DNA from: Escherichia coli | GTDB taxonomy: Bacteria > Pseudomonadota > Gammaproteobacteria > Enterobacterales > Enterobacteriaceae | Length of the DNA: 64,000 nt | Assembly: GCF_003019035.1 (NCBI RefSeq) | Contig: NZ_CP027447.1 | Strand: one strand, 5' to 3' | Shown: in pieces, positions 2,951 through 21,593 of the stretch | Layout of the letters: each line of letters begins with the position of its first letter | Position numbering within the stretch: position 1 is the first letter of the stretch | Position numbers and translations under genes: made by a program | Notes under the pieces: model-generated | Seen by the model: the letters and a program-made list of their open reading frames with translations, nothing else | Told to the model about the DNA's origin: nothing | Databases searched by the model: none

Positions 2951-4489
2951 TCAGAACAGCCCCAACGGTTTATCCGAGTAGCTCACCAGCAGGCACTTGG
3001 TTTGCTGGTAATGCTCAAGCATCATCTTATGGGTTTCGCGTCCGATGCCCGACTGTTTGTAGCCGCCAAACGCCGCATGTGCCGGGTAAGCGTGATAACA
3101 GTTGGTCCACACGCGCCCGGCCTGAATGCCGCGCCCCATCTTATAGGCCAGATTACCGTTGCGGCTCCAGACACCCGCGCCCAGGCCATATTGCGTGTCG
3201 TTCGCCAGCTCCAGCGCTTCTTCCATAGTTTTGAAGGTGGTCACCGCCAGCACCGGACCAAAAATTTCTTCCTGGAACACGCGCATATTATTCTGACCAA
3301 ACAGAATCGTCGGTTCGAGGTAGTAGCCGTCTTTCAGTTCGCCTTCCAGCAGCTTGCGCCGCCCGCCGGTGAGCACGTCTGCGCCCTCTTTTTTACCAAT
3401 ATCAATGTAGTTGAGGATGGTTTCCAATTGCCCGTGCGAAACCTGCGCCCCCATTTGCGTCACGCTGTCGAGCGGGTTACCGCTACGAATGCTTTCGACA
3501 CGGCGGATGGCGCGTTCCATAAAGCGTTCGTAGATAGACTCCTGCACTAAAGCACGGCTTGGACAGGTGCAAACTTCGCCCTGGTTAAAGGCAAACAGTG
3601 CAAAGCCTTCCAGCGCTTTATCGAAAAAGGCATCTTCTTCATCCATCACATCAGCAAAGAAGATATTTGGCGACTTGCCGCCCAGTTCCAGGGTTACCGG
3701 AATAATATTTTGCGTGGCGTACTGCATAATTTGTTGGCCCACTTCCGTTGATCCGGTAAACGCCACTTTGGCGATGCGTTTCGAGGTCGCCAGATATTCG
3801 CCAATTTCCCCACCAGCGCCGTTAACCACGTTCACCACGCCCGGCGGCAGTAAATCACCGACGATTTCCATTAGCAGCAGTACAGAAAGCGGGGTAAGAC
3901 GTGCGGGTTTCAGCACCACACAGTTGCCCGCCGCCAGCGCGGGAGCCATTTTCCAGCTCGCCATCAGCAGCGGGAAGTTCCACGGAATAATCTGCCCCAC
4001 CACGCCTAACGGTTCGTGGAAGTGATAAGCCACAGTTTCGCTATCCACTTCACTAATACCGCCTTCCTGTGCCCGGATACACGAGGCGAAATAGCGGAAA
4101 TGGTCAATCGCCAGCGGTACATCAGCAGCACTGGTTTCGCGAATGGGTTTGCCGTTATCCCAGGTTTCAGCCGTCGCTAACAGTTCAAGGTTTTGTTCCA
4201 TTCGATCGGCAATCTTAAACAGAATTGCCGCGCGATCCTGCACCGAGGTATGTGCCCATTTATCTTTCACTTTATGCGCGGCATCCAGCGCCAAATCGAT
4301 GTCTCGTTTGCCCGAAGACGCCACTTCGCACAGCAGCTGCCCGGTCACCGGCGTCAGGTTCTGGTAATACTCGCCGTCGGCAGGGGCTACCCACTCGCCG
4401 CCGATAAAGTTGTCATAACGGGCTTTTAACTTAAGAGGAAAACCATACTCGCCGGGCTTAATCTGTGCTGAAGGGGGATTATTGGTCAT
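2951..4489 (-). CDS. aldB: Aldehyde dehydrogenase B
   Basis: 512 aa counted from [34 protein letters not shown]. Aldehyde dehydrogenase motifs are present ([23 protein letters not shown]). The 30-codon upstream extension in the ORF track was rejected. Confidence 0.95.
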
Positions 4490-4596
4490 GATCGTCTCCT
4501 TGCGGTGTGAGGTATAACAAGGGTAGACGTGACTGGCGAAATCTTCGCCAGTCGATAACAGCTTTACGACGGCTATCACGAATTTACGGGCAAGGG

Positions 4597-5892
4597 TTAC
4601 AGCGGATAATGCGCGAAGTACACGGCTTGCTGGTCATTAATTTTCTTCTCTTGCGCAAACCCTTCTTTAACAATTGTCCGTAAATCAGCTCGAGCCGTAT
4701 TATCAGAGACGCCCAGGCTCGCGCTAATTTCAGCAACTGTGTACTCTTTCCCCGGATTGGCGAGCATCACATTCAGGAGCGTTACCTGGCGCGGATTCAG
4801 GCGTTTAAGCACACCAGAGCTAAACAGCACACTATCGAGTTTTGCGCTTCGTTGTGTAATTTCATCGATATGCTGCTGCCAGTTTTGCAGAGCACGTTTA
4901 ATGACACCCGCCTGATATTCAAGGAAATAAGTCAGATCCATACCATCTGATTCAGTGTACTGGTAGCTGGCGGCATATTTGACCGGTGCAGCATGAAGCA
5001 AACGGCTGATGGAAATATATTTAAAGACATCGTAGCCCGATTTCAGCATATACCAGTAAAACAGCGCCCGACTGGTGCGCCCGTTGCCATCCCGAAACGG
5101 ATGTTCATGGGCCAGCATAAAATGCAGAATGCAGGCACGGACCAACGGATGAATATACCCTTCATGGCTGTTTAACCACTGGCAAACTTTTTCCAGCCGT
5201 TCCGGTAACAATGCCGCAGCGGGCGGTTGATGCACTATACTGCCATCATAGTCGGCGATCACAACATCATCTGTTTCACGAAATTCTCCCGGACGATATT
5301 TCGCGTCATTGATTCCACCCATACCAATGGCATGTAACTGGCGAATAAGCGCAGGTGTCAGCGGTTCTGCGAGTAAGTGCGGAATTTCCGCCATCAGCCG
5401 GGCATTTCCCGCAATCATATGCTCGTCTTCAGTGCGTGGCGACCGCCCTGTTTCCAGCATTTTTCTCGCCACCAGCGTTGTAGTATTCGCACCCTCCAGC
5501 TGGGAGCTGGTGATCGGCTCTTCCAGGCGTAACTGGCTTAACTCGGCTCCGGCCCCGCGTAACCGTTCAGTCTGATCTTTCAGCGCCAGCGCGGTAGCAC
5601 GTTTGTCGACAAGCTCGCACGCTTCTGCAATCACCGGGGTAATGTTGAATCCGGCCTGTTCACCCGCTTCATTGCAATAATTAATTCGTTGGATCGCCGC
5701 GTTGCGCGCCAGACGGGTAAGCGTCCACGCCACATCGACGTTTTCTCCTTTTTTGATGCGGTACTGCAACTCATCAAAAGGCAGATAACGTCCTTTTTCA
5801 TCGGTAACCCGGTTAAAGCGCAGGTGGGCCAGGAGTTCCTCACCCGATAAGTGTGATAAAGGAATAAGTCCGGGAGGTGATTTGATAGCCAT
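4597..5892 (-). CDS. Fic-domain protein (putative AMPylase) with N-terminal inhibitory-helix motif and C-terminal winged-helix-like domain
   Basis: The canonical Fic motif [12 protein letters not shown] lies at about residues 263-274. An (S/T)xxxE(G/N) motif, SSQLEG, lies at about residues 129-134, as in class II autoinhibited Fic proteins. The C-terminal segment [28 protein letters not shown] looks HTH-like. Confidence 0.85.
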
Positions 5893-5897
5893 GTGCT

Positions 5898-5976
5898 TAT
5901 CTCAAAAAAGCGCAATATTGAGATAGTGTATAGCAGGAAAGAGAAACTATCTCAAAAAAAGCAAGTTTTGAGATAG
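5898..5976 (-). promoter_or_regulatory. Twin palindromes in the fic leader with a putative sigma70 promoter between them
   Basis: TATCTCAA-N12-TTGAGATA lies at 5898..5925 and CTATCTCAAAA-N8-TTTTGAGATAG at 5947..5976. On the minus strand, TTGAGA (5950..5955), a 17-nt spacer and TATACA (5927..5932) resemble -35/-10 elements. The proximal palindrome also covers the GAGA Shine-Dalgarno-like sequence. Confidence 0.4.
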
Positions 5977-5979
5977 TTG

Positions 5980-6006
5980 AAAAAGCGGCTGACAACTCGC
6001 CAGCCG
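5980..6006 (-). terminator. Rho-independent terminator downstream of yiaY
   Basis: On the minus strand, CGGCUG-(9 nt loop)-CAGCCG is followed by CUUUUUC, 15 nt after the yiaY stop. Confidence 0.6.
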
Positions 6007-6021
6007 TTGTGGGAATGATGA

Positions 6022-7173
6022 TTACATTGCGGCGCGATAAATCGCCACAATTTCTTCGTGAGTTGCCTGGATCGGGTTAGTAAAGCCACAGGCATCTTTC
6101 AGGGCATTAGTCGCCAGTACCGTGAAATCTTCTTCTTTCACGTTCAGATCGCGTAGGCCTGCCGGGATATCCACTTTCTTCGCCAGTTCACGGATGGCGT
6201 TAATGCAGGCTTCAGCCCCTTCCGCGTCATTTTTGCCTGTCACGTTCACGCCCATAGCAGCAGCACAGTCACGCAGACGCGCAGCGGCGACTTTGCTGTT
6301 GAATACCTGAACATGCGGCAGCAGAACAGCATTACATACACCGTGTGGCAGGTTGTAGAAACCGCCCAGCTGGTGCGCCATCGCATGAACATAACCCAGA
6401 GAAGCATTATTGAACGCCATACCGGCGAGGAACTGGGCATAAGCCATTGCTTCACGCGCTTTAGCATTGCTGCCATCTTCAACGGCTAACGGCAGATTTT
6501 CGGCAATCATGGTCACCGCTTTCAGTGCGCAAGCGTCAGTGATCGGCGTGGCGGCAATAGAAACATACGCTTCGATAGCGTGCGTTAAGGCATCCATACC
6601 CGTTGCGGCGGTCAGTGACTTCGGCATACCGATCATCAGAGAGGAGTCATTGACAGAAAGCAACGGAGTTACATGTTTATCAACAATCGCCATTTTGATA
6701 TGACGCGCTTCGTCAGTGATGATGCAGAAACGGGTCATTTCAGAGGCCGTACCCGCCGTGGTATTGATGGCGATCATCGGCAGCTGCGGTTTTGCAGAGC
6801 GGTCAACGCCTTCGTAATCGCGAATATCGCCGCCATTGGCTGCCACCAGCGCAATACCTTTTGCGCAGTCGTGCGGAGAACCACCGCCTAAGGAGATCAC
6901 GCTATCGCAATTATTTTCTTTAAGTAATTTCAAACCTGCGGCGACGTTTTCCGTGGTGGGGTTAGGTTGGGTGCCATCATAAATAACGCTAAAAATATTG
7001 CGTTCTTCCAGTGCTTTTTGCACATCACCCGCCATACCCAATTTCGTTAACATATTGTCGGTGACAATTAAGGTACGGGTAAATCCATAATCTGCCATCA
7101 TATTCATTGCATCATTCAATGAATCAGCACCAATAACATTCACGGAAGGAATAAAAAAGGTTGAAGCTGCCAT
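6022..7173 (-). CDS. yiaY: Iron-containing (group III) alcohol dehydrogenase YiaY
   Basis: 383 aa, [19 protein letters not shown].... It has Fe-ADH motifs ([11 protein letters not shown], and HAMAHQLGG with metal-binding His residues). Its position between aldB and selB matches K-12. Confidence 0.9.
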
Positions 7174-7261
7174 AACACACTCCTGAAAGTGTAAAAAAGG
7201 GCGGGCAGCTTACTGAGGATTTTCATTTGAAAATATGATCAACATTACCGTTTATTAAAAT

Positions 7262-7302
7262 ATTTTTAATAAAAAGCACGTTACATTCATCAAATAACGT
7301 GC
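7262..7302 (-). terminator. Rho-independent terminator downstream of selB
   Basis: Stem GCACGTTA (7276..7283) pairs with TAACGTGC (7295..7302). On the minus strand it is followed by UUUUUAUUAAAAAUA. Confidence 0.65.
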
Positions 7303-7363
7303 CTTCTTAACATTAATAAGAAATTTTGTATTAATTCATATTTATTATGAATTAATCATTTCC

Positions 7364-9208
7364 TTATTTTTCCGGAAATAATAATGCGTCGCGCAATAAA
7401 TGATCATTTCCACGACGACGCGTAAAGCCAATGCGGTCAAAATATTCCAGAATCTGAATTGCCAGCTTTCGGCCTACGCCTAAGCGATCGCGGAAATCCG
7501 CCGCGCAGGTTGAACCACACTCCTGATCGAGATCGCGGATCATATTGGCAAATTCGACAATCCGATCGTTACGGTAATAACGATCTTTAACGATCGCGGT
7601 AATTATCCCCTGCTGCGCCGCCTGGCGTAGAGTCAGGCGCATTGCCTGCTCGTCGGTTCCCGTCTCTTTTGCCAGATCACGCACCCACCACGGTTCGTCA
7701 CCAAACAGCGGCTCTGCTTTTTGCCAGATGGCCTGCTGCTCTTCGCTGAAGCCCGCTTTGTGATCCGGCAGATGCAGCCAGCCGTGATGACTGAGGATGT
7801 CGCCGCTTTCGCGCATCTTTTCAATCAGCAACAGTACCAGCGCTTCATCTTCCATTGGCAACGCCATACGTCGCAGACGTTCGCGCCCAGGACCAGGCTC
7901 ATCGCGATGTTGCTCATGATAAGTCGCTAATGTGTCGATAATTTTCCGCTGCCAGCGGGCGGCAACTGGCGCATTCAACAAGCTGTAACCAGCCTGAATA
8001 TAGCCAGGCTGTTGCAGCAGTTCGCGCATCCCTTCGCCGTTGAGCTGCCGTGCCCAGGCGAAATCCGCAAGGTTAACCGCGCCGCGTTCCAGATGAACAG
8101 ATAACGCATCGGCATCGCTCTGCGCCCGTGCAAGAGACGCCAGCCATTGCAGATATTCCGGCTTACGCTTACCGCGACGCGGCGGGTTAAGCATCACCAC
8201 ACGCGCCCCCGCCAGCGTGTTGCGGGCCGAGATATCGCGCAGCACTATGCGATCGTTATCCGCCAGCCACAGCGGCGTGTCGAACACCAGCTCGGCAAGG
8301 TTATCTTCCAGCAGCGAAACGCGTCCCGTAACGTGGCTGGCGGCGTGGTGAATATGCAGCGGCTGCCACTGGGTCAGCGGTGTATGGGTTTGAAGCTCAA
8401 CTATCACCCGCGTAAACGGCTCCGGCGGCGCATCGGCAAGCAACCAGTCGCCACGGTTAATCTGTTCTTTTTCCGCATCACCCGCGATGTTAAGCGCAAT
8501 ACGCTGCCCGGCATGAGCTGCATCTGTTGGCTGATTTTGCGCATGTAGCGCACGCACGCGCATCGGTTTATTTACACCAGTCAGCCAGATTGAATCGCCT
8601 ACCTTCACTTCCCCGCTTAACGCCGTACCGGTGACGACCAGCCCGGCACCTTTTACGGTAAATGCGCGGTCGATCGCGAGGCGGAAACTATGTTGGCTGG
8701 CGTGTTCGCGTTCTGGTAACTGAAGCAGATGCTCGCGCAGGGCATCAATTCCCCGACCTTCGGTTGCTGCGGTGATAAACAGTTTTGCCTCAGCAAAACC
8801 GTATTCCCGCAGCACCTCCTTTACCTGGCGTTCAACCTCATCAACACGCGCTTCGTCCACGCGATCGGCTTTGGTCAGCGCCACTGTCAGCATCGGATTA
8901 CCGGTCAGCTGCAAAATCGCCAGATGCTCACGGGTCTGTGCCATCACGCCGTCATCGCACGCCACCACCAACAGCGCGTGATCGATACCACCAACGCCCG
9001 CCAGCATGTTGGAAAGAAACTTTTCATGACCGGGTACGTCGATAAAACCAGGCACGCGACCATCCGGCTGCGGCCAGTAGGCATAGCCGAGATCGATGGT
9101 CATGCCGCGCTTTTTTTCTTCCGGCAGACGGTCGGCATTTACGCCAGTAATCGCCTGCAATAAGGTTGTTTTGCCGTGGTCAACGTGTCCGGCAGTCGCA
9201 ATAATCAT
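7364..9208 (-). CDS. selB: Selenocysteine-specific translation elongation factor SelB
   Basis: 614 aa, [22 protein letters not shown]. It has GTPase G motifs ([12 protein letters not shown]) and a long C-terminal winged-helix extension. It overlaps selA by 4 nt. Confidence 0.95.
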
Positions 9209-10596
9209 TTCAACAACATCTCCAAAAACCGTTGCTCATCTTCAAGGCAGCGTAAATCCAGCCACAATCGTCCGTCATAAATACGACCAATCACCGGCAC
9301 TGGCAATTCACGCCAGCGGGCGGCTAATGACTCAAGGTGGCTACCGCGTCCATCATGGGGTGTAAACGTTAATGCCGCGCTCGGCAGGCGATCAACCGGC
9401 AGCGAACCACTGCCAATCTGCGAAAGACATGGCATAACCTGTACCGCAAACTCCGCGCCGTAATGTGCGGCAAGGGGAGCCTGTAAACGTTGTGCCTGGA
9501 TTTGAATGACCTCTGCGCTGCGGGTAAGCAGGCGCAGGGTCGGTAATTTTTTACTCAGAGCTTCAGGGTGTAAATAAAGACGCAACGTGGCTTCCAGCGC
9601 CGCAAGGGTCATTTTATCCGCGCGTAATGCACGCTTCAGCGGGTGGCTTTGCAGGCGGGCGATCATCTCTTTTTTACCAACGATAATCCCTGCCTGCGGC
9701 CCGCCTAACAACTTGTCGCCGGAGAAACTCACCAGACTGACGCCCGCCGCAATCAACTCCTGCGGCATTGGCTCTTTCGGCAAACCGTACTGGCTAAGAT
9801 CGACCAGCGAGCCACTGCCTAAATCAGTCACCACGGGAATATCCAGTTCTTTGCCAAGCGCCACCAGTTCAGCTTCGTCTATCGCTTTGGTGAACCCCTG
9901 AATGCTGTAGTTACTGGTATGTACTTTCATCAACAGTGCGGTATTTTCATTCACCGCCTGACGATAATCATTCGCGTGCGTGCGGTTGGTGGTCCCTACT
10001 TCGTGTAGGGTGCAGCCTGCCTGACGCATAACATCGGGAATACGAAACGCGCCGCCAATCTCCACCAGTTCGCCGCGAGAAACCACCACCTCTTTCCCGC
10101 TGGCAGTGGCCGCCAACATCAATAACACCGCCGCCGCATTGTTATTAACGATACAGGCATCTTCCGCCCCCGTAATACGGCACAGCAGCTGCGCCAGCGC
10201 ACGATCGCGATGTCCGCGTCCGGCGTCGTCCAGATCGTACTCGAGGGTCACTGGCGAACGCATAGCCTTCGTAACGGCTTCCACCGCGGCTTCCGCCTGT
10301 AAAGCTCGCCCAAGGTTGGTATGCAGCACGGTTCCCGTCAGGTTGATCACCGGACGCAGCGCGCTTTGCGCCTCTTTCGTCAACCGGGCATCAACTTCTT
10401 GCGCCCAGTTTTCACACCATGCGGGCAGCGTCTGGCTGCCACGAATCACTTCTCGCGCTTCGTCGAGCATCTGACGCAACAATTCCACCACGCGGGTGTG
10501 ACCATAAGTATCACGCAAAGAAAGGAAGGAGCTATCGCGCAATAAGCGATCAATAGCCGGAAGTTGACTATAGAGGGAACGCGTTTCGGTTGTCAT
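9205..10596 (-). CDS. selA: L-seryl-tRNA(Sec) selenium transferase SelA
   Basis: 463 aa, [21 protein letters not shown].... It contains the PLP-lysine region [13 protein letters not shown] and sits in the selAB operon arrangement. Confidence 0.95.
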
Positions 10597-10693: not shown

Positions 10694-11302
10694 TCAAGCC
10701 TTTGGCGGTTCGGTGCGAGCAAAACTTTCGCGGCTAAAGAGGTTTTCGACCAGTTTGACTAAGTGTGGGCGGTCGACACACCAGCCTGGCGCAACGCGGC
10801 GGAAATTGAGATATCCAACGGCACAGGCAATGGCGATAGTCGCCAGATTGACCGTATCGGTTTTGAGCGTGCCATCGACCAGATATCCTTCCAGCACATC
10901 CAGACTGCGGTTGATTTTCTCCCGCTGGCGTAACAATTCATCTTCAGACTGCTGCGCCGCCGGACGCGCCTGTTCACGCACCGATACCAGCCCGGCATCC
11001 ATAATGCCATCCGCCAGCGCCTCAATTTTGCGCACCCGCAACGACTCCAGCGGATCACGCGGCAACATCGCCGGAGCAACATTCATTAATTCAATATATT
11101 CGGCGATGATCGGCGAATCAAACCAGCATTCGCCCTCTTCGGTCACCAGCACCGGCACTTTTCCTAACGGGTTAAATTGCGCCACGCCGTTATCCGCGTT
11201 ATAGGGCAGTTCATTAATAAATTCGAAAGTTATGCCCTTTTCTAACAACAGAATAGAAAGTTTGCGTACAAACGGGCTGGTGTAGCTACCGACGAGTTTC
11301 AT
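10694..11302 (-). CDS. yibF: Glutathione S-transferase-like protein YibF
   Basis: 202 aa, [24 protein letters not shown].... It has a GST N-terminal thioredoxin-like motif. Its position between selA and rhs matches K-12. Confidence 0.9.
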
Positions 11303-11530
11303 GCCGAGTCCTTTGTGCGAGGAAAAATATCAGTATGGCCTGGTGATGGGAAAAAGGGCAGAAAATGTTGATGGTTTGTTACTTCCCAATAAATCACATA
11401 TTTATCATGGTGATATAAATATTTTCCTAATTGTTCTTATCTGACAGATATCTCACTTAAGGCTTTCTTATAAATCTGTAGGGTTTCGCCTGTCAGCAGA
11501 CAAATAACCCGATAAAACAAGGATGAGCAG

Positions 11531-14500
11531 ATGAGCGGAAAACCGGCGGCGCGTCAGGGCGACATGACGCAGTATGGCGGTAGCATTGTTCAGGGTTCTG
11601 CCGGGGTGCGTATTGGTGCCCCCACCGGTGTGGCCTGTTCGGTGTGCCCCGGCGGGGTGACGTCCGGCCATCCGGTCAATCCGCTGCTGGGTGCAAAGGT
11701 CCTTCCCGGCGAAACCGACCTTGCCCTGCCCGCCCCGCTGCCGTTCATTCTCTCCCGCACCTACAGCAGTTACCGGACAAAAACGCCCGCGCCGGTGGGG
11801 AGCCTCGGCCCCGGCTGGAAAATGCCTGCGGATATCCGCTTACAGCTGCGCGATAACACTCTGATACTCAGTGATAACGGCGGCAGAAGCCTGTATTTTG
11901 AGCACCTGTTTCCCGGTGAGGACGGTTACAGCCGCAGCGAGTCACTCTGGCTGGTGCGCGGCGGCGTGGCGAAACTGGATGAAGGTCACCGGCTGGCCGC
12001 ACTCTGGCAGGCGCTGCCGGAAGAGCTTCGCCTGAGTCCGCATCGTTATCTGGCGACGAACAGTCCACAGGGGCCGTGGTGGGTACTCGGCTGGTGTGAG
12101 CGGGTGCCGGAGGCGGAGAAGGCCACTTCCGGCGGGACGGAACCGTCCGCTTTTCCTGATACCCTGCCGGGTTACACCGAATATGGCCGGGACAACGGCA
12201 TCCGTCTGTCTGCCGTGTGGCTGACGCACGACCCGGAATACCCGGAGAATTTACCTGCCGCGCCGCTGGTGCGCTATGGCTGGACGCCACGCGGCGAACT
12301 GGCGGTGGTGTATGACCGCAGCAATACACAGGTGCGCAGCTTTACTTACGATGATAAATACCGGGGCCGGATGGTGGCGCACCGCCGCGCGGGCCGGCCG
12401 GAAATCCGTTACCGTTACGACAGCGACGGGCGGGTGACAGAACAGCTAAACCCGGCAGGCTTAAGCTACACGTATCAGTATGAGAAAGACCGCATCACCA
12501 TCACCGACAGCCTGGACCGCCGTGAAGTGCTGCACACGCAGGGCGAAGGCGGGCTGAAGCGGGTGGTGAAAAAGGAACACGCGGACGGCAGCGTCACGCA
12601 GAGTCAGTTTGACGCGGTGGGCAGGCTTAAGGCACAGACGGATGCCGCAGGCCGGACGACTGAGTACAGCCCGGATGTGGTGACGGGACTCATCACGCGC
12701 ATCACCACGCCGGATGGCAGGGCATCGGCGTTTTACTATAACCACCACAACCAGTTAACGTCAGCCACCTGGCCTGACGGGCTGGAAATACGCCGGGAAT
12801 ATGATGAATCCGGCCGTCTGATTCAGGAAACCGCACACAACGGCGATATCACCCGCTACCGTTATGATAATCCACACAGTGACTTCCCCTGCGCAACGGA
12901 CGATGCCACCGGCAGCCGGAAAACCATGACGTGGAGCCGTTACGGTCAGTTGCTGACCGTCACTGACTGTTCCGGTTATGTAACCCGTTATGACCATGAC
13001 CGCTTCGGGCAGATGACGGCGGTGCACCGCGAGGAAGGCCTGAGCCAGTACCGCGCATACGACAGCCGTGGACAGTTAATTGCGGTGAAAGACACGCAGG
13101 GCCATGAAACGCGGTATGAATACAACGCCGCCGGTGACCTGACCGCCGTCATTGCCCCGGACGGCAGCAGAAACGGGACACAGTACGATGCGTGGGGAAA
13201 GGCCGTCCGTACCACGCAGGGCGGGCTGACCCGCAGTATGGAATACGATGCTGCAGGACGGGTCATCCGCCTGACAAACGAAAATGGCAGCCACACCACC
13301 TTCCGTTACGATGTACTCGACCGGCTGATACAGGAAACCGGCTTTGACGGCCGCGCACAGCGTTATCACCACGACCTGACCGGCAAACTTATCCGCAGCG
13401 AGGATGAGGGGCTGGTCACCCACTGGCACTATGACGAAGCAGACCGCCTCACGCAGCGCACCGTGAATGGCGAAACCGCAGAGCGGTGGCAGTATGACGA
13501 ACGCGGCTGGCTGACAGGCATCAGCCATCTCAGCGAAGGGCACCGGGTGACGGTGCATTACAGGTATGATGAGAAAGGCCGCCTGACCGGTGAGCGCCAG
13601 ACGGTGCATCACCCGCAGACGGAAGCACTGCTCTGGCAGCATGAAACCAGACATGCGTACAACGCGCAGGGGCTGGCGAACCGCTGTATACCGGACAGCC
13701 TGCCCGCCGTGGAATGGCTGACTTATGGCAGTGGTTACCTGGCAGGGATGAAGCTGGGTGACTCGCCCCTGGTGGAGTACACCCGCGACCGCCTGCACCG
13801 GGAAACGCTGCGCAGCTTCGGCCGTTATGAACTCACCACCGCTTATACCCCTGCCGGGCAGTTACAGAGCCAGCACCTGAACAGCCTGCAGTATGACCGC
13901 GATTACACCTGGAACGACAACGGCGAACTCATTCGCATCAGCAGCCCGCGCCAGACCCGGAGTTACAGCTACAGCGACTCCGGCAGGCTGACCGGCGTTC
14001 ACACCACCGCAGCGAACCTGGATATCCGCATCCCGTATGCCACGGACCCGGCAGGTAACCGCCTGCCCGACCCGGAGCTGCACCCGGACAGCACCCTCAG
14101 CATGTGGCCGGATAACCGTATCGCCCGTGACGCGCACTATCTTTACCGGTATGACCGTCACGGCAGGCTGACGGAGAAAACCGACCTCATCCCGGAAGGG
14201 GTTATCCGCACGGATGATGAGCGGACTCACCGGTACCATTACGACAGCCGGCACCGGCTGGTGCACTACACGCGGACACAATATGCAGAGCCGCTGGTCG
14301 AAAGTCGCTATCTTTACGACCCGCTGGGCCGCAGGGTGGCAAAACGGGTATGGCGACGTGAACGGGACCTGACGGGCTGGATGTCGCTGTCACGGAAACC
14401 GGAAGTGACCTGGTACGGCTGGGACGGCGACCGGCTGACCACGATACAGAACGACAGAACCCGCATCCAGACGATTTATCAGCCGGGGAGCTTCACGCCA

Positions 14501-15571
14501 CTCATCAGGGTCGAAACCGCCACCGGTGAGCTGGCGAAAACGCAGCGCCGCAGCCTGGCGGATGCGCTTCAGCAGTCCGGCGGCGAAGACGGTGGTGATG
14601 TGGTGTTCCCGCCGGTGCTGGTGCAGATGCTCGACCGGCTGGAAAGTGAAATCCTGGCTGACCGGGTGAGTGAGGAAAGCCGCCGCTGGCTGGCATCGTG
14701 CGACCTGACGGTGGCGCAGATGCAAAACCAGATGGAACCGGTGTACACGCCGGCGCGAAAAATTCACCTGTACCACTGCGACCATCGCGGCCTGCCGCTG
14801 GCGCTTGTCAGCACGGAAGGGGCAACAGCGTGGTACGCAGAATACGATGAATGGGGCAACCTGCTGAATGAAGAGAACCCGCACCAGCTGCAGCAGCTCA
14901 TCCGCCTGCCGGGTCAGCAGTATGATGAGGAGTCCGGCCTGTATTACAACCGCCACCGCTATTATGACCCGCTGCAGGGGCGGTATATCACTCAGGATCC
15001 GATTGGGCTGAAGGGGGGATGGAACCTGTATGGATATCAATTGAATCCGATATCAGACATCGACCCCCTGGGTTTATCTATGTGGGAGGATGCAAAATCG
15101 GGGGCATGTACTAATGGTCTTTGCGGCACACTATCCGCTATGATAGGTCCAGATAAGTTTGATTCTATAGATAGCACCGCATATGACGCCTTAAATAAAA
15201 TAAATAGCCAATCTATTTGCGAAGATAAAGAGTTCGCTGGTTTAATATGTAAGGATAATAGTGGCAGATATTTCTCAACAGCACCTAACCGAGGGGAAAG
15301 AAAAGGATCATATCCATTCAATAGCCCTTGCCCTAATGGTACTGAGAAAGTATCAGCTTATCATACTCATGGTGCAGATAGTCATGGAGAATATTGGGAC
15401 GAAATATTTTCAGGCAAAGATGAGAAAATAGTTAAAAGTAAAGATAACAATATCAAGTCATTTTATTTGGGCACGCCCAGTGGTAATTTTAAAGCAATAG
15501 ATAACCACGGGAAGGAAATAACAAACGGAAAAGGATTACCTAATGTCTGCAGAGTTCATGGTAATATGTAA
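11531..15571 (+). CDS. rhsA: Full-length Rhs polymorphic toxin at the rhsA locus: PAAR-like N-terminus, YD-repeat shell, DPLGL boundary, AT-rich C-terminal tip
   Basis: 1346 aa. The N-terminal [17 protein letters not shown]...GVRIG is PAAR-like. There are many YD repeats (YRYD, YEYN, YDAAGR...). The core ends [10 protein letters not shown] (DPLGL at 15062..15076). The tip from 15077..15571 shows an abrupt drop in GC. The yibF-rhs-yibA synteny defines the locus. Confidence 0.9.
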
Positions 15572-15926
15572 AAAAATATTGTTTAGGAACTGTGTCATTG
15601 TATCTTTGTTTGTTTTTACATACAACACATGGGCGCAGTGTAATAATAATATTAAAATAATGCGCAAGTATGAAAGTGAGGGTAAATATACCGTTAGAAA
15701 TTTGGTTAAAAATAAAGCTATAGCATTGGAATTAGCTGAGATATATGTTAAGAATCGTTATGGGCAGGATGCCGCAGAAGAAGAAAAACCATATAAAATC
15801 ACTGAGTTAACAACAAGTTGGGTTGTTGAAGGCACCATTCACTCAGACCAAATTGCTGGTGGGGTTTTTATTATAGAAATAGGCAAAAATGATGGGGGAA
15901 TTCTGAATTTTGGCCACGGAAAATAA
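15543..15926 (+). CDS. Rhs immunity protein candidate, YbbC-like (NTF2-fold immunity family)
   Basis: It lies immediately downstream of, and overlaps, the rhs tip. [33 protein letters not shown]...[22 protein letters not shown] closely resembles my recollection of K-12 YbbC (the rhsD-locus immunity). The N-terminus is hydrophobic. The real start may be the Met at 15558. Confidence 0.7.
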
Positions 15927-16030
15927 GTATGTAAGGATAATCAAACATCGTGTGCGCTGATGGCAGAGTAGGTGGAGGACTCCAGACAGTCAAACGATAA
16001 AAAAAGATAGCCTTTATGGAGGTTCCTGCA

Positions 16031-16873
16031 ATGTCAAATACATACCAGAAAAGAAAGGCAAGTAAAGAGTATGGTTTATATAATCAATGTAAGAAACTAA
16101 ATGATGATGAATTATTTCGCTTACTTGATGATCACAATTCCTTGAAAAGGATTTCATCTGCCAGAGTATTACAGTTAAGAGGTGGGCAAGACGCTGTTAG
16201 ATTGGTAATTGAGTTCTGCTCTGATAAAAATTATATCCGTAGAGATATCGGAGCATTTATACTCGGGCAAATAAAAATTTTCAAAAAATGCGAAGATAAT
16301 GTGTTTAATATTTTGAACAATATGGCATTGAATGATAAGAGCGCTTGCGTTCGAGCTACGGCAATCGAGTCAACGGCTCAGCGATGCAAGAAAAACCCAA
16401 TTTATTCACCTAAAATAGTAGAACAATCTCAAATTACTGCTTTTGATAAATCGACTAATGTCAGACGTGCTACAGCATTTGCTATTTCTGTTATCAATGA
16501 TAAAGCAACAATTCCACTATTGATTAATCTGTTAAAAGATCCAAATGGAGATGTCAGAAACTGGGCCGCATTTGCAATAAATATCAATAAATATGATAAT
16601 AGTGATATTAGGGATTGTTTTGTGGAGATGCTTCAGGATAAAAATGAGGAAGTCCGTATTGAAGCAATAATCGGACTTTCCTACAGAAAAGATAAAAGGG
16701 TTTTATCTGTTTTATGCGATGAGTTAAAAAAAAATACTGTTTATGATGATATCATTGAAGCTGCGGGTGAATTAGGTGATAAAACGCTACTTCCTGTTTT
16801 AGATACTATGTTGTACAAGTTTGATGACAATGAAATTATAACTTCCGCTATTGATAAGCTGAAGCGTTCATAG
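16031..16873 (+). CDS. yibA: HEAT-repeat protein YibA
   Basis: 280 aa from MSNTYQKRKASKEYGLYNQCKKLNDDELFRLLDDHNS.... It has repeated DxxVR HEAT-like units (NVRRATAFA, DVRNWAAFA, EVRIEAIIG) and matches K-12 YibA as I remember it. Confidence 0.9.
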   Translation: MSNTYQKRKASKEYGLYNQCKKLNDDELFRLLDDHNSLKRISSARVLQLRGGQDAVRLVIEFCSDKNYIRRDIGAFILGQIKIFKKCEDNVFNILNNMALNDKSACVRATAIESTAQRCKKNPIYSPKIVEQSQITAFDKSTNVRRATAFAISVINDKATIPLLINLLKDPNGDVRNWAAFAININKYDNSDIRDCFVEMLQDKNEEVRIEAIIGLSYRKDKRVLSVLCDELKKNTVYDDIIEAAGELGDKTLLPVLDTMLYKFDDNEIITSAIDKLKRS

Positions 16874-16900
16874 CGTGAGTTGCCTATGCACAGTGGGGTA

Positions 16901-17040
16901 TTCCCGCCGGCACGGTGCAGATGCTCGATCGGCTGGAAAGTGAAATCCTGGCTGACCGGGTGAGTGAGGAAAGCCGCCGCTGGCTGGCATCGTGCGGCCT
17001 GACGGTGGCGCAGATGAAAAAACAGATGGAACCGGTGTAC
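16901..17040 (+). pseudogene. 5' remnant of an orphan rhs core fragment, truncated by IS insertion
   Basis: Nearly identical to 14606..14746 of the main rhs (...[42 protein letters not shown]). It has no start codon or upstream core and stops abruptly at the IS left end. Confidence 0.8.
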
Positions 17041-18332
17041 CAGGGAAAGATCACGTAACGCTGCTTTTTTGTACTAAACAATTCGCATTTTATGTTTAAA
17101 AATTGAGATATTCCTCATTACCTGAAGCTGTTTTTTATTGCTTATACATGATCAAATACTCCTTACATAATTAAGGAGAACAAAATGGTACTTAAAAAAT
17201 TGATGGAACATATTTCTATTATCCCCGATTACAGACAAGCCTGGAAAGTGGAACATAAATTATCGGATATTCTACTGTTGACTATTTGCGCCGTTATTTC
17301 GGGTGCAGAAGGTTGGGAAGATATAGAGGATTTTGGGGAAACACATCTCGATTTTTTGAAGCAATATGGTGATTTTGAAAATGGTATTCCTGTTCACGAT
17401 ACCATTGCCAGAGTTGTATCCTGTATCAGTCCTGCAAAATTTCACGAGTGCTTTATTAACTGGATGCGTGACTGCCATTCTTCAGATGATAAAGGCGTCA
17501 TTGCAATTGATGGAAAAACGCTCCGGCACTCTTATGACAAGAGTCGCCGCAGGGGAGCGATTCATGTCATTAGTGCGTTCTCAACAATGCACAGTCTGGT
17601 CATCGGACAGATCAAGACGGATGAGAAATCCAATGAGATTACAGCTATCCCGGAACTTCTTAACATGCTGGATATTAAAGGAAAAATCATCACAACTGAT
17701 GCGATGGGTTGCCAGAAAGATATTGCAGAGAAGATACAAAAACAGGGAGGTGATTATTTATTCGCTGTAAAAGGAAACCAGGGGCGGCTAAATAAAGCCT
17801 TCGAGGAAAAATTTCCGCTGAAAGAATTAAATAATCCAGAGCATGACAGTTACGCAATTAGTGAAAAGAGTCACGGCAGAGAAGAAATCCGTCTTCACAT
17901 TGTCTGCGATGTCCCTGATGAACTTATTGATTTCACGTTTGAATGGAAAGGTCTGAAGAAATTATGCGTGGCAGTCTCCTTTCGGTCAATAATAGCAGAA
18001 CAAAAGAAAGAGCCCGAAATGACGGTCAGATATTATATCAGTTCTGCTGATTTAACCGCAGAGAAGTTCGCCACAGCAATCCGAAACCACTGGCACGTGG
18101 AGAATAAGCTGCACTGGCGTCTGGACGTGGTAATGAATGAAGACGACTGCAAAATAAGAAGAGGAAATGCAGCAGAATTATTTTCAGGGATACGGCACAT
18201 CGCTATTAATATTTTGACGAATGATAAGGTATTCAAGGCAGGGTTAAGACGTAAGATGCGAAAAGCAGCCATGGACAGAAAGTATCTGGCGTCAGTCCTT
18301 GCGGGGAGCGGGCTTTCGTAATCTTTCCCTGC
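17041..18332 (+). mobile_element. ISAs1-family insertion sequence (Rhs-associated H-repeat element)
   Basis: Terminal inverted repeats are CAGGGAAAGATCACGTAA (left) and TTTCGTAATCTTTCCCTG (right). A single 378-aa transposase ORF is present. It is flanked by a direct duplication of ccggtgtac (17032..17040 and 18333..18341). Confidence 0.85.
17185..18321 (+). CDS. ISAs1-family DDE transposase (H repeat-associated protein, YhhI-like)
   Basis: 378 aa, [51 protein letters not shown].... This is the typical H-repeat-associated protein N-terminus and length. The [16 protein letters not shown] and [10 protein letters not shown] motifs are present. Confidence 0.9.
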
Positions 18333-19109
18333 CCGGTGTACACGCCGGCGCGAAAAATCCACCTGTACCACTGCGACCATCGCGGCCTGCCGCTGGTGCT
18401 TATCAGCACGGAAGGGGCAACAGCGTGGTACGCAGAATATGATGAATGGGGCAACCTGCTGAATGAAGAGAACCCGCACCAGCTGCAGCAGCTCATCCGC
18501 CTGCCGGGTCAGCAGTATGATGAGGAGTCCGGCCTGTATTACAACCGCCACCGCTATTATGACCCGCTGCAGGGGCGGTATATCACTCAGGATCCAATTG
18601 GGCTGAAGGGGGGATGGAATTTTTATCAGTATCCGTTGAATCCGATAACTGATATTGACCCGTTGGGATTAGCGACCTGTTTATACAGCATAACTTTAGG
18701 TATGCTTTCATGCGTTTCAGATACGCCAAGTGATGATAATTCTTATGGTGTGCTTACTATTTCAGTCGCCTCTGATAATAATGGTAATAATATGCAATGT
18801 AAAAATAATCCTGGTTGTACACACTTACAAAATAGAGGCCCAATACCTCAAGGGGTATGGAGCTGGAATGTTAATGGTCCTGGAGCAACCAATAGAAAAC
18901 CTAATGGTATACGTTTAGTACCGTCAGCAAATACAGAAACGTATAATCGTGATGGATTTTTAACACATAGTTGTTTAAACGCTTTTGGTCCATCTTTAGG
19001 ACCTCGATTCTGTTCCGAGGGTTGTATAACTGGTTCATCTAATGACATGCAAAAATTAAATGAGCTAATATTTTCAGAGCCAGATAGCACATTAACAGTG
19101 ACGGACTAG
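18333..19109 (+). pseudogene. Orphan Rhs C-terminal module: core 3' fragment plus divergent toxin tip (Tlde1/YkuD-like motif pattern)
   Basis: 18342..about 18625 is nearly identical to 14747..about 15030 of the main rhs. DPLGL lies at 18657..18671. The AT-rich tip spans 18672..19109 and contains [11 protein letters not shown] and THS-x14-SEGCITG. There is no ribosome-binding context or ATG of its own; the ORF-track start is a GTG inside the core reading frame. Confidence 0.75.
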
Positions 19110-19113
19110 AAAT

Positions 19114-19635
19114 ATGGCAAGGTTATTAACAATTGTGCTTTTTTTCTCTATTTCTGCGAATGCAGTTACTGTAAACCAATTTCAGAGAGAGTTGGATTTG
19201 GCAGACAAGGCAATATTATGGGCACTAATATCAGCCAGTACCCAAGAGGGACGAAAAGCGTGTTCACTTAGCTATTTTTCATGTAAAGCCGCAGAGGCTG
19301 AACTCGGACTGGCATATATGGCTGCTAATGATAACAAGGCATTTCTCACATCCTTATCTAGAATAATGATGTACAAAATAGATGCTGGACTTTCCGAATC
19401 CTATACATGCTATTTATTAAGCAAGGGAAAGATCATAAGACCATATCTGAAGAATCTAAATCCACACCAACTTGTCGCTGATTGCATTGAAACTGTAAAT
19501 AAAATAAAAGATAAAAATAAAAAAATCATTGATATAGATTCAGTTAATATTTGCAATGATAATAAAAATATAAATTGGAGAGTTAATAGTACTATTGTAG
19601 CCATTGATGATTCTATAAAATGCATCGATGAATAA
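19114..19635 (+). CDS. Candidate immunity protein for the orphan tip, with Sec-type signal peptide
   Basis: It starts 4 nt after the orphan tip stop. It is 173 aa and AT-rich. The N-terminus MARLLTIVLFFSISANA|VTV has n/h/c regions and an AxA cleavage motif. I recognise no family. Confidence 0.65.
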   Translation: MARLLTIVLFFSISANAVTVNQFQRELDLADKAILWALISASTQEGRKACSLSYFSCKAAEAELGLAYMAANDNKAFLTSLSRIMMYKIDAGLSESYTCYLLSKGKIIRPYLKNLNPHQLVADCIETVNKIKDKNKKIIDIDSVNICNDNKNINWRVNSTIVAIDDSIKCIDE

Positions 19636-19796
19636 TAACTTAATTATATTTAAAAATATATTAATAACTCACTCTCCAGGAGTTTTTTTAACTTAGTGTT
19701 ATAATGAATACGATAATTAAAAGTGAAGAGAAAAATAGTTGTATACATATATTCCATGAACCTACATTGTGATCTATAAATTATATATTTTTAAAT

Positions 19797-20084
19797 GTGA
19801 CTGTCATCCTTCAGATAATAAAGCCATCATCGCAATAGATGGAAAAGCACTCCTGCTCTTTTTTGATTAGAGCCGTGGCAGAGGAACAACTCATATCATC
19901 ATTGCGATCTCGACAATGTATAGTCTGATCCTTCGGCAGATCAAGACGGATAAAAATCCAATGAGTTCACACTCATCCCGAACTTCTTAACATAATGGAT
20001 ATTAACGAAAAATCATCACAGCCGATGAAATAATATGCAAAAATAATTAGTCCTTGCAGGGAGCAAAGTTCCATAATCTCCCCC
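19797..20084 (+). mobile_element. Decayed, internally deleted ISAs1-family (H-repeat) remnant
   Basis: 19797..20027 aligns by eye with 17469..about 17707 of the intact IS, with many substitutions and frame disruptions. 20047..20084 aligns with the IS right end (ttagtccttgcagggagcaaagttccataatctcccc versus tcagtccttgcggggagcgggctttcgtaatctttccc). The middle part of the IS is missing. Confidence 0.7.
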
Positions 20085-20091
20085 GCCCCCC

Positions 20092-21228
20092 TCAATGATC
20101 CAAATAAAGATAATGCATCCAGCTGGTCATTCTTAGCAGCACTTTCCGCATCACCGAAACATGGCTGAAATGGTCGGAGTAAACTGCCACCTGGGCGTAG
20201 ATGCCGTCGGGTAAAGCATCGATATCATCGTTAGGGTCCAGTTCAATGGTTCCCAGCACACCGTCCGTGCCGGGCACGACCGTTAATGATTGCAATACCC
20301 CTTGCGCCTGATACGAACCGCCTGGCACGACAGGTAAAATACTAGTCAGTTTGCCGTGGAACACCTGCCCAGGTAGCGCGTTAAACACCACTTCCGCATC
20401 ATCGCCGGGTTTCAGACGTAACAGCGAGTTCTGCCGAAATTGGGCGACAATTTGCCGTTTTTGCTCGGGGATGAAAACCATCACCGGACGTAGCGGCAAG
20501 GCAGCTGCGTATGTACCTGGGCGGATCAGTACCTGAGTGACGTAGCCATTGCTCGGTGCGCGAATGACAGTCTGCTCAAGGTTATATTTTGCTTCAGTAA
20601 GTTGCGCTCTTAAGCTCACAATCTGCGACTGCTCGCCGTTAACCATACTGTCGAGCTGGCTCTGGATCTGCGCCTGCTCCGCCACCGAGCCTTTCACCAG
20701 CGCGTCCTGCGCGAGGAAGTTTTGCCGCGCATCGTCGATGTCACGTTCCGAGAACGGATTCACTGCCGCCTGGCTGCCTATCAGGTAACGTTGATAATTT
20801 TTAAACAGACGGTCGCGCTCCGCTGAAACCTGGGTGGTGTTGGCCTGCGCTTCAGTGAGCTGCGCGCGCAGCGTCTTTATATTATGCGTCGCCGTCATCA
20901 GGTCAGCCTGAAGTCTGTCAACTCGCGCCTGGTAACGAACCGGGTCGAGCTTAAAAAGCACCTCGCCCTTCTGAATAAGCTGATTATTTTTGTCGGTGAC
21001 TTCAGTAACAATTCCCGTCACCTGTGGCGTGATGGGGATCGCTATCACTGCCTTTTGCGCGGTAAAAGTGTAAGGGTGGTTGTAGTTCATCAACAAAATC
21101 AAACCACTCACCAGAAACACGCCTCCCAGCGCCGCCGTCGCCAGCGTCCACTGATTTACCGGAATGCGGAAGATTTTAAAGACCGCCCACGCCAGCGCCA
21201 CGTAAGTTAAAACAATCAATAGATCCAT
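20092..21228 (-). CDS. yibH: HlyD-family membrane fusion/secretion protein YibH
   Basis: 378 aa. It has an N-terminal TM helix, a coiled-coil central part ([24 protein letters not shown]) and a beta-barrel C-terminus typical of HlyD/EmrA-like proteins. Pairing with yibI matches K-12. Confidence 0.85.
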
Positions 21229-21230
21229 AT

Positions 21231-21593
21231 TTAGATCTCCGGGAACGTGGAATAGTCAGTCTTTTTCTCGGCGGCGAGTTGATGCTCCAGCCGGGAAATT
21301 CGGTCAGAAAGTGCGGCGATTTCCGGGTCAGTCGCTTTCTCCTGCGACGCAACATGTGACTGCATGCCCCAGCCGCGCTCCGGTTGGTAGAGCGTCGCCC
21401 AAATCCACAGGAACGGCCAAATTACATGGAGGGTAAAAAGGCTCACCCAGCCCGCAGTATGGATCGCATCGGCATGGGGATGATTACGCTTTTTGGCAAT
21501 CAGATAAGGGATGTCATGTATCGCGATGATTCCATAAAAAATCACCAGAAAGACGAAGATCAGCACTCCCAACGCGAAGTAGTTTAGAAACAT
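21231..21593 (-). CDS. yibI: Small inner-membrane protein YibI (DUF3302)
   Basis: 120 aa from [30 protein letters not shown]. The upstream 34-codon extension in the ORF track was rejected. It ends 2 nt before the yibH start. Confidence 0.8.

Follow-up and report, generated by a model that had tools for sequence, protein, structure and literature searches.

Gene content of the locus

We analysed a stretch of 64,000 nucleotides of the Escherichia coli contig NZ_CP027447.1 (the window; positions are counted from its first letter). Positions 11531-20084 of the window are very probably occupied by a clade-I Rhs element, a polymorphic-toxin locus at E. coli 'position 10', the site between yibF and yibH where strain K-12 has rhsA. 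We are confident that the order of genes in this element is a single permutation of common tip/immunity cassettes. Eleven rhs sites in E. coli were defined by Jackson et al. 2009 (PMC2935791), who also described displaced tips.

The left flank, yibF (10694-11302, minus strand), is an open reading frame (ORF) annotated under this name in strains SCU-301, LR-28 and K-12. It is followed, all on the plus strand, by a main rhs gene with its C-terminal tip, a yhhH-like gene, a short remnant of another tip, yibA, an orphan rhs core split by the insertion sequence (IS) ISEc1, the orphan's own tip, an Imm57 gene and a decayed H-repeat. The conserved right flank, yibH (20092-21228, minus strand), is an ORF annotated in the same three genomes. 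This gene order and its coordinates, as given by the initial annotation, were confirmed by ORFs, by Pfam and NCBIfam matches and by alignment to K-12 and other genomes, and the RefSeq annotation of the locus carries matching gene calls. The K-12 order that it gave, rhsA-yibA-yibJ-yibG with further fragments, also proved correct against the K-12 locus. In terms of composition, GC content is ∼0.62 in the core versus 0.29-0.42 in the tips, and both tips are then followed by a small immunity gene.

Main rhs gene and its core deletion

The main rhs gene (11531-15571) encodes a protein of 1346 aa with a PAAR-like/DUF6531 region, a YD-repeat core and a tip; a literal PAAR motif stands with DUF6531 at the N-terminus. 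The N-terminal region and core, up to the DPxGL boundary (11531-15076), match the Pfam families RHS_repeat, DUF6531 and RHS as well as the NCBIfam model RHS_core. The match to RHS_repeat (E 5e-69) covers 11 stretches; the match to RHS_core (2448 bits, cut-off 2000) is split in two by a gap at profile positions about 200-273. The core end, PF03527, is located at aa 1078-1114 of the protein, and the boundary 'QDPIGL...DIDPLGL' is readable in the main ORF and in the orphan ORF alike. In the neighbourhood of the main rhs gene there is no adjacent vgrG; a type VI secretion system (T6SS) probably delivers the C-terminal toxin of the main protein.

The initial annotation characterized this gene as 'full-length rhs', which is true of the ORF (it is intact) but not of the core, which lacks 195 bp (65 codons) at position 12117 when compared with three references, K-12 rhsA, K-12 rhsB and LR-28. 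The deletion is in-frame. Part of what is missing is an RHS-repeat-like hairpin, which corresponds in alignment to residues about 140-180 of Tse5, an Rhs effector of solved structure, and sits near the N-terminal end of the Rhs shell. In a sample of 5,426 complete E. coli genomes, used for all counts below, the exact deletion junction was found with a 56-nt query in one genome, SCU-301; it also appears, as a junction peptide, in partial proteins (at least five) that derive from separate draft assemblies. RefSeq lists exactly this protein of 1346 aa as WP_106901746.1, on a contig of 5.17 Mb. The deletion is real, since its junction is present both in the complete SCU-301 genome and in the partial proteins from drafts. 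A longer junction query, of 160 nt, was dropped, as its pieces were joined across the 195-bp gap and 887 genomes falsely appeared to cover it.

Main tip, yhhH-like gene and the remnant in front of yibA

The GC content drops from 0.62 at about position 15000 to 0.34-0.40 in the main tip (15077-15571). The tip matches PF14220 (DUF4329, E 8e-40), the family that Zhang 2012 named Tox-JAB-2, and in its sequence we read the signature 'HTH...SGKD'; the signature of Tox-JAB-2 is E, H[ST]H, S, D (Zhang 2012, PMC3482391). A sequence search of this tip against PDB chains gave chance matches only. The tip is of the K-12 RhsB type (98.8% identity to the K-12 rhsB tip).

The yhhH-like gene of the YhhH/YbbC family (15543-15926; named yhhH by PGAP) overlaps the 3′-end of rhs by 29 nt and matches Imm-NTF2-2 (E 3.5e-25). 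Its product is the predicted cognate immunity protein of the JAB2 tip and would neutralise Tox-JAB-2. Three toxin/immunity pairs described by Zhang 2012 (PMC3482391), Tox-JAB-2/Imm-NTF2-2, Ntox34/Imm-HEAT and Tox-LD-peptidase/Imm57, are all found at the locus, in the case of yibA with the toxin cut to 32 nt. The main tip and its partner are not new, being 98-99% identical to the K-12 RhsB tip and yhhH. We also observed that the N-terminus of the YhhH-like protein (15543-15650) resembles a signal peptide; if it is one, the periplasm may be where the Tox-JAB-2 tip acts.

Downstream of the yhhH-like gene, homology to the K-12 rhsA-yibA segment restarts at position 15979 (the blastn breakpoint; position 6286 of the K-12 locus), 32 nt before the rhsA stop codon of K-12. 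The K-12 RhsA tip was identified as Ntox34 by profile search; thus a K-12-type Ntox34 stump, 32 nt with the stop codon included (15979-16010, defined by alignment), still precedes yibA. This remnant marks the join of the JAB2/yhhH cassette to an older cassette. The junction from JAB2 through yhhH to the remnant is base-for-base the same in the window, in the K-12 RhsB locus and in strain WP8, which points to one old event.

The gene yibA (16016-16873) codes for HEAT repeats (Imm-HEAT; matches to Pfam HEAT_2 and NCBIfam PRK09687) and is 99.65% identical to K-12 yibA. Given the Ntox34 stump in front of it and the Ntox34/Imm-HEAT pairing of Zhang 2012, yibA is predicted to be an Ntox34 immunity gene that outlived its toxin. 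We note that while yibA is this close to K-12, yibF in the backbone nearby is only 96.4% identical; judged by these identities, the accessory cassette appears to be of later origin than the surrounding chromosome, or to move more readily.

Orphan core and ISEc1 insertion

The 5′ piece of the orphan core (16891-17040) is of the yibJ type: it matches the 5′-end of K-12 yibJ, is 93-94% identical to the main core at 14599-14746 and is ended by the IS. The 3′ piece (18332-18671; 340 nt), which ends in DPIGL...DPLGL and matches RHS_core positions 1151-1261, shares 93.5% identity with the main core at 14738-15076. The orphan core thus starts as K-12 yibJ and then enters a Tlde1-like tip, not the yibJ tip; yibG is absent. 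The switch from the yibJ-type core is located inside 18461-18644, where both K-12 segments align, and it fits a recombination between repeated core ends.

ISEc1, an H-repeat of the ISAs1 family (17041-18331; 1291 bp), is bounded by 25-nt imperfect terminal inverted repeats (80% complementary) and carries an intact DDE transposase of 378 aa (17185-18321; transpos_ISAs1 E 6e-125, with a match to DDE_Tnp_1 as well). The element is 97.3% identical to K-12 H-rptB/yhhI. A 9-bp direct repeat, CCGGTGTAC, is found on either side (17032-17040 and 18333-18341), and the same CCGGTGTAC occurs as a single copy in the uninterrupted yibJ of K-12. The left junction of ISEc1 was found in exact form in one genome (again SCU-301); the reconstructed empty site, an uninterrupted orphan core running into the Tlde1-like tip, matched in one piece in 97 genomes. 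ISEc1 is best read as having arrived by ordinary transposition, because the 9-bp target duplication, the single copy in K-12 and the empty site in 97 genomes agree on this. The element was formerly described as never observed to transpose. An in-frame GTG (18336), 5 nt past the IS end, opens the orphan ORF.

Orphan tip, Imm57 gene and decayed H-repeat

The orphan tip (18672-19109), when isolated, matches Pfam Tlde1_dom (PF10908) with 33.5 bits (cut-off 30.1). In an alignment with 11 homologues, which come from Paraburkholderia, Ralstonia and Acidobacteria, His99 and Cys118 (the latter in SEGC) are invariant. As the sequence search of this tip against PDB chains returned no match, we used an AF2 model (pLDDT 72.7) with Foldseek; the best three PDB matches, all weak, were 4xxt (a Clostridium amidase/peptidase), DpaA and Ldtfm. 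We presume that these three share the L,D-transpeptidase fold. Taken together, profile, alignment and model give the tip the marks of a putative peptidoglycan L,D-peptidase of the Tlde1/DUF2778 kind that would act in the periplasm.

The next gene (19114-19635) is a member of Imm57 (Pfam, E 1.4e-44). The N-terminus of its product, MARLLTIVLFFSISANA, reads by inspection as a Sec signal peptide, which would fit a periplasmic target of the orphan tip.

Window positions 18461-21300 are colinear with K-12 yibS-yibW-yibV-yibU-yibH (93%). Frameshifts break up the tip in K-12: its counterpart there, yibW, is 88.6% identical to the window tip and matches Tlde1 below threshold (17.3 bits versus 30.1). 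K-12 yibV is an Imm57 gene, also frameshifted, and lacks the signal peptide and the C-terminus. This colinearity, along with the Imm57 and Tlde1 matches, indicates that a module wrecked in K-12 is present in the window as an intact allele; as the alignments have it, the orphan tip is the intact allele of decayed yibW and the Imm57 gene is the full-length allele of yibV. Both ORFs are intact in the window, in LR-28 and in XH990 and decayed in the K-12-type allele. The initial annotation had both tips and their partner genes as apparently different from K-12; this is correct at this site for the main pair, while the orphan pair turns out to be K-12 yibS/W/V.

Between the Imm57 gene and yibH there is a decayed H-repeat remnant (from about 19797 to 20089), the equivalent of K-12 yibU. 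Five direct repeats tie it to the intact IS (73-88% identity); it is internally deleted and shares 92.8% identity with the yibU region of K-12, and its right end touches the stop codon of yibH. The conservation of yibF, yibA and yibH was another claim of the initial annotation, and it is borne out by the identities of yibF and yibA to K-12 and by the same yibF-yibH site.

Distribution of cassettes among complete genomes

A cassette was counted as present in a genome if at least 80% of the query was covered in one place. The whole interval 11000-20600 was present in 64 genomes. Its parts were far more frequent: the JAB2 tip with yhhH and full yibA was seen in 914 genomes, the Ntox34 tip with yibA in 1,757, the yibJ tip with yibG in 3,429 and the Tlde1-like tip with Imm57 in 3,486. 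The alleles of the last cassette fell into two discrete classes, with 296 genomes at ≥99% identity to the window and 3,364 genomes at 90-95%; the K-12 allele belongs to the 90-95% band.

Among the 64 genomes with the whole interval, only that of SCU-301 follows the window colinearly; the remaining 63 resemble LR-28. In these an additional orphan is present, whose tip is Peptidase_M91-like and whose partner has 143 aa, and ISEc1 is at another place, without a target duplication. The M91-like orphan with its partner was present in 78 genomes. In LR-28 (positions 7802-9381 of its locus) this extra orphan has the motif HEIAH and a weak match to Peptidase_M91 (E 5e-4, under the cut-off); the 143-aa ORF behind it, which has no family match, is presumably its immunity gene.

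Over 10.3 kb (11000-21300) the window and SCU-301 differ at 36 positions, nearly all of them in CCWGG (Dcm) sites or homopolymers. Since the differences fall at such places, they are probably errors of nanopore base-calling in the SCU-301 assembly, and its flags for a 'frameshifted' rhs, ISAs1 transposase and orphan tip are then probably artefactual. For the same reason we rejected the pseudogene flags of SCU-301 as evidence of decay.

Across genomes, a few common cassettes are permuted in many ways at the yibF-yibH site. WP8 has the K-12 order, but its main gene bears the JAB2/yhhH cassette. In 2020CK-00188 the main gene has an RhsC-type tip and ybfB, and a whole Ntox34 orphan is displaced ahead of yibA. 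XH990 has the series JAB2-yhhH-yibA-orphan(Tlde1)-Imm57 without the IS, pushed down by an RhsC-type tip and ybfB. The exact permutation seen in the window is rare (one lineage) and built of common parts. Neither K-12 nor most strains have the exact order, and in this respect the initial annotation stands.

Proposed history of the locus

An Rhs protein would encapsulate and deliver its C-terminal toxin, with the adjacent small gene protecting the producer. New tip/immunity cassettes would enter by recombination at the conserved core end, pushing the old tip downstream; old toxins would then decay, with immunity genes tending to persist; immunity genes kept in this way would shield the cell from neighbours that carry those toxins. 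In the window, the JAB2-yhhH cassette would have replaced an Ntox34 tip in a single old event, a step suggested by the identical junction in the K-12 RhsB locus and in the class of 914 genomes. Repeated core 3′-ends would then have recombined, fusing a yibJ-type orphan core to the Tlde1-like tip; the yibJ-tip/yibG cassette would have been lost by then or never been there. Next, ISEc1 would have transposed into the orphan core, making the 9-bp duplication, and finally the main core would have suffered the in-frame deletion of 195 bp. The orphan tip could still be redeployed: because the 340-nt core piece is so close to the main core, recombination between the two could graft the tip onto the main gene.

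That the locus records successive tip/immunity cassette events at one site, as the initial annotation had proposed, is supported by the Ntox34 remnant next to yibA and by the neighbouring stages in 2020CK-00188 and XH990; WP8 and LR-28 add to this series, in which stages both earlier and later than that of the window occur. A derivation in one step from the LR-28-type arrangement (63 genomes) was considered and rejected: there the IS is elsewhere and without target duplication, and the extra M91-like orphan is present. The 97 genomes with the empty site would offer a simpler precursor.

Several observations weigh against this history. We infer the order of events by parsimony over a small panel, not from a phylogeny. 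The cassette counts rest on 80% coverage and are genome-wide rather than for this site alone. The match of the orphan tip to Tlde1_dom is marginal, ∼3 bits above threshold, and the comparison of folds gave weak matches only (E 5e-3 to 0.6, TM about 0.47). The loss of 65 codons may inactivate the main protein. A scan for promoters and terminators over 15000-20200 found 17 sites versus 18.1 expected from shuffled sequence; being no better than shuffled sequence, it is uninformative on the expression of the orphan, and we used it neither for nor against such expression.

Alternative explanations

Rather than being assembled stepwise in the lineage of the window, the composite could have come mostly as one block from a different E. 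coli lineage, through homologous recombination, so that only the IS and the deletion arose locally. We see this as possible, though the less favoured origin. Accessory DNA does appear to move, as suggested by yibA and its surroundings being 99-99.65% identical to K-12 versus 96.4% for yibF. The junction of JAB2-yhhH with the remnant, shared with K-12 RhsB and WP8, and the two allele classes of Tlde1/Imm57 could be explained in this way too. However, such an import is compatible with the successive displacements, because the stacked order would still record them somewhere in the history of the species. An assembly artefact, with near-identical rhs core repeats and IS copies collapsed or mis-joined, is on the other hand hardly credible. 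Core repeats that are 93-94% identical, combined with a multicopy IS, are a classic trouble spot for assemblers; yet the complete SCU-301 genome is colinear over the whole 10.3 kb with nothing but the differences described above, the target duplication of ISEc1 is clean, the deletion junction recurs in the proteins of separate drafts and the exact main protein is a RefSeq entry.

A different question is what the downstream genes do. The IS-separated orphan (GTG 18336, core piece and Tlde1-like tip) and Imm57 could be expressed by themselves, for instance as a toxin-antitoxin-like pair, in which case they would be neither relics nor a silent reserve. The position of the in-frame GTG right after the IS end, the integrity of both ORFs in three genomes while the K-12-type allele decayed, and the orphan Rhs of Salmonella, reported as such a pair (Starsta 2020, PMC7043789), would agree with it. 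We nevertheless hold it improbable that the pair is self-expressed with a function of its own, whether as a toxin-antitoxin-like system or as standing immunity under selection. Promoter signals are not above chance, the delivery part of the protein is lacking, and an L,D-peptidase acting in the periplasm, if made without a signal peptide, would miss its target from the cytoplasm of the producer; besides, Jackson et al. 2009 (PMC2935791) see such fragments as mostly silent. If the orphan pair were functional alone, the insertion of ISEc1 would be adaptive rather than neutral damage. We continue to favour successive displacement of cassettes at this site.

Significance of the locus

The locus is an ordinary one, a known variable Rhs toxin locus, since it is a rare shuffle of common cassettes plus an IS, made by the displacement described in 2009. 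The process of successive acquisition is already known from the C-terminal displacement model published in that year (PMC2935791), and the initial view of the arrangement as remarkable is not upheld: many permutations of common cassettes exist, and both the mechanism and the sharing of tips were reported there. Current understanding is unchanged by the locus. Its value is rather that of a worked example of tip displacement, with a live pair, an immunity gene outliving its toxin, a tip in reserve and H-repeats of two generations side by side. It also explains K-12 yibS/W/V as what is left of a Tlde1-like/Imm57 module that other strains keep intact, and it provides a clean pair of filled and empty sites for ISEc1. 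In addition, the K-12 RhsB element is colinear with the front of the arrangement at the rhsA site, in agreement with a common descent of the two.

Other genes in the window

Elsewhere in the window, a YadA-like trimeric autotransporter (28024-32970) has 1648 aa, versus 1570 aa (4713 nt) in SCU-301 and 4896 nt in 2020CK-00188; this variation in length points to a difference in repeat number or a collapse of repeats between assemblies. A gene of the Fic family (431 aa; 4597-5892, minus strand) is located between yiaY and aldB, and a HicA/HicB toxin-antitoxin pair lies beyond aldB (about 2063-2675, SCU-301 annotation). We read the Fic gene and HicA/HicB as accessory genes inserted into a backbone that is otherwise conserved.

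Comparison with known systems

The closest relative is the K-12 RhsA element (rhsA-yibA-yibJ-yibG-yibS/W-yibV-yibU). It has the same site and flanks, a core 96% identical to that of the window, the same 5′-end of the yibJ-type orphan core, the Tlde1-like tip/Imm57 module and the H-repeat stump next to yibH. The two differ in the main tip (Ntox34 in K-12, JAB2 with yhhH in the window), in the yibJ tip and yibG, which K-12 retains and the window lacks, and in the intact IS and the 195-bp core deletion, both present in the window and absent from the K-12 locus.

The K-12 RhsB element (rhsB-yhhH-yrhC-H-rptB/yhhI, between nikR and yhhJ) is at another chromosomal site, but it is colinear with window positions 12117-16377 at 96.9% identity, a span that takes in the core, the JAB2 tip, yhhH, the Ntox34 remnant of 32 nt and yibA up to its nucleotide 362. 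Positions 3974-9525 of the K-12 rhsB locus align to the window at 12117-16377 and 17040-18331; from this colinearity, followed directly by the H-repeat, the pseudogene yrhC is recognized as the first 362 nt of yibA. In K-12 the H-repeat truncates yibA at the match of window position 16377, whereas the H-repeat of the window is located 660 bp further on, in the orphan core, and has a target duplication. The position-9 locus of strain KKa019 keeps a full yibA and a yibJ-like orphan. Together with the colinearity of K-12 RhsB this suggests a common ancestry of the position-9 element and a position-10 arrangement of the kind seen in the window.

The arrays of Jackson et al. 2009 (PMC2935791) likewise consist of invariant core repeats and unrelated AT-rich tips, with displaced tips stacked downstream, and the authors reported the same tip at positions 9 (rhsB) and 10 (rhsA). 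They found clade I loci to be generally without dissociated downstream tips, while we see at least one in most sampled genomes; this difference is one of degree only.

In Salmonella Typhimurium LT2 (PMC3967940; PMC7043789) there is likewise a full-length rhs and, behind it, an orphan core that has a tip and an immunity gene of its own, and homology of the cores permits fusion of the orphan tip to the main gene, as would be possible for the cores in the window; redeployment of the Salmonella orphan by recombination was shown experimentally (Koskiniemi 2014, PMC3967940). The Salmonella locus belongs to the SPI-6 T6SS island and its function was tested; unlike the orphan core of Salmonella, the one in the window is split by the IS, with about 340 nt of usable homology.

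Finally, the orphan tip shares with the Tlde1/DUF2778 effectors (bioRxiv 10.1101/2020.02.18.954545) a match to PF10908 (marginal in score for the orphan tip), the conserved His and Cys and a partner with a signal peptide. The His-Cys spacing is 10 residues in Tlde1 (STM14_0336) and 19 in the orphan tip, and the immunity family is DUF2195 for Tlde1 and Imm57 for the partner in the window. The same preprint (bioRxiv 10.1101/2020.02.18.954545) mentions DUF2778 domains fused to Rhs and their link to Imm57.

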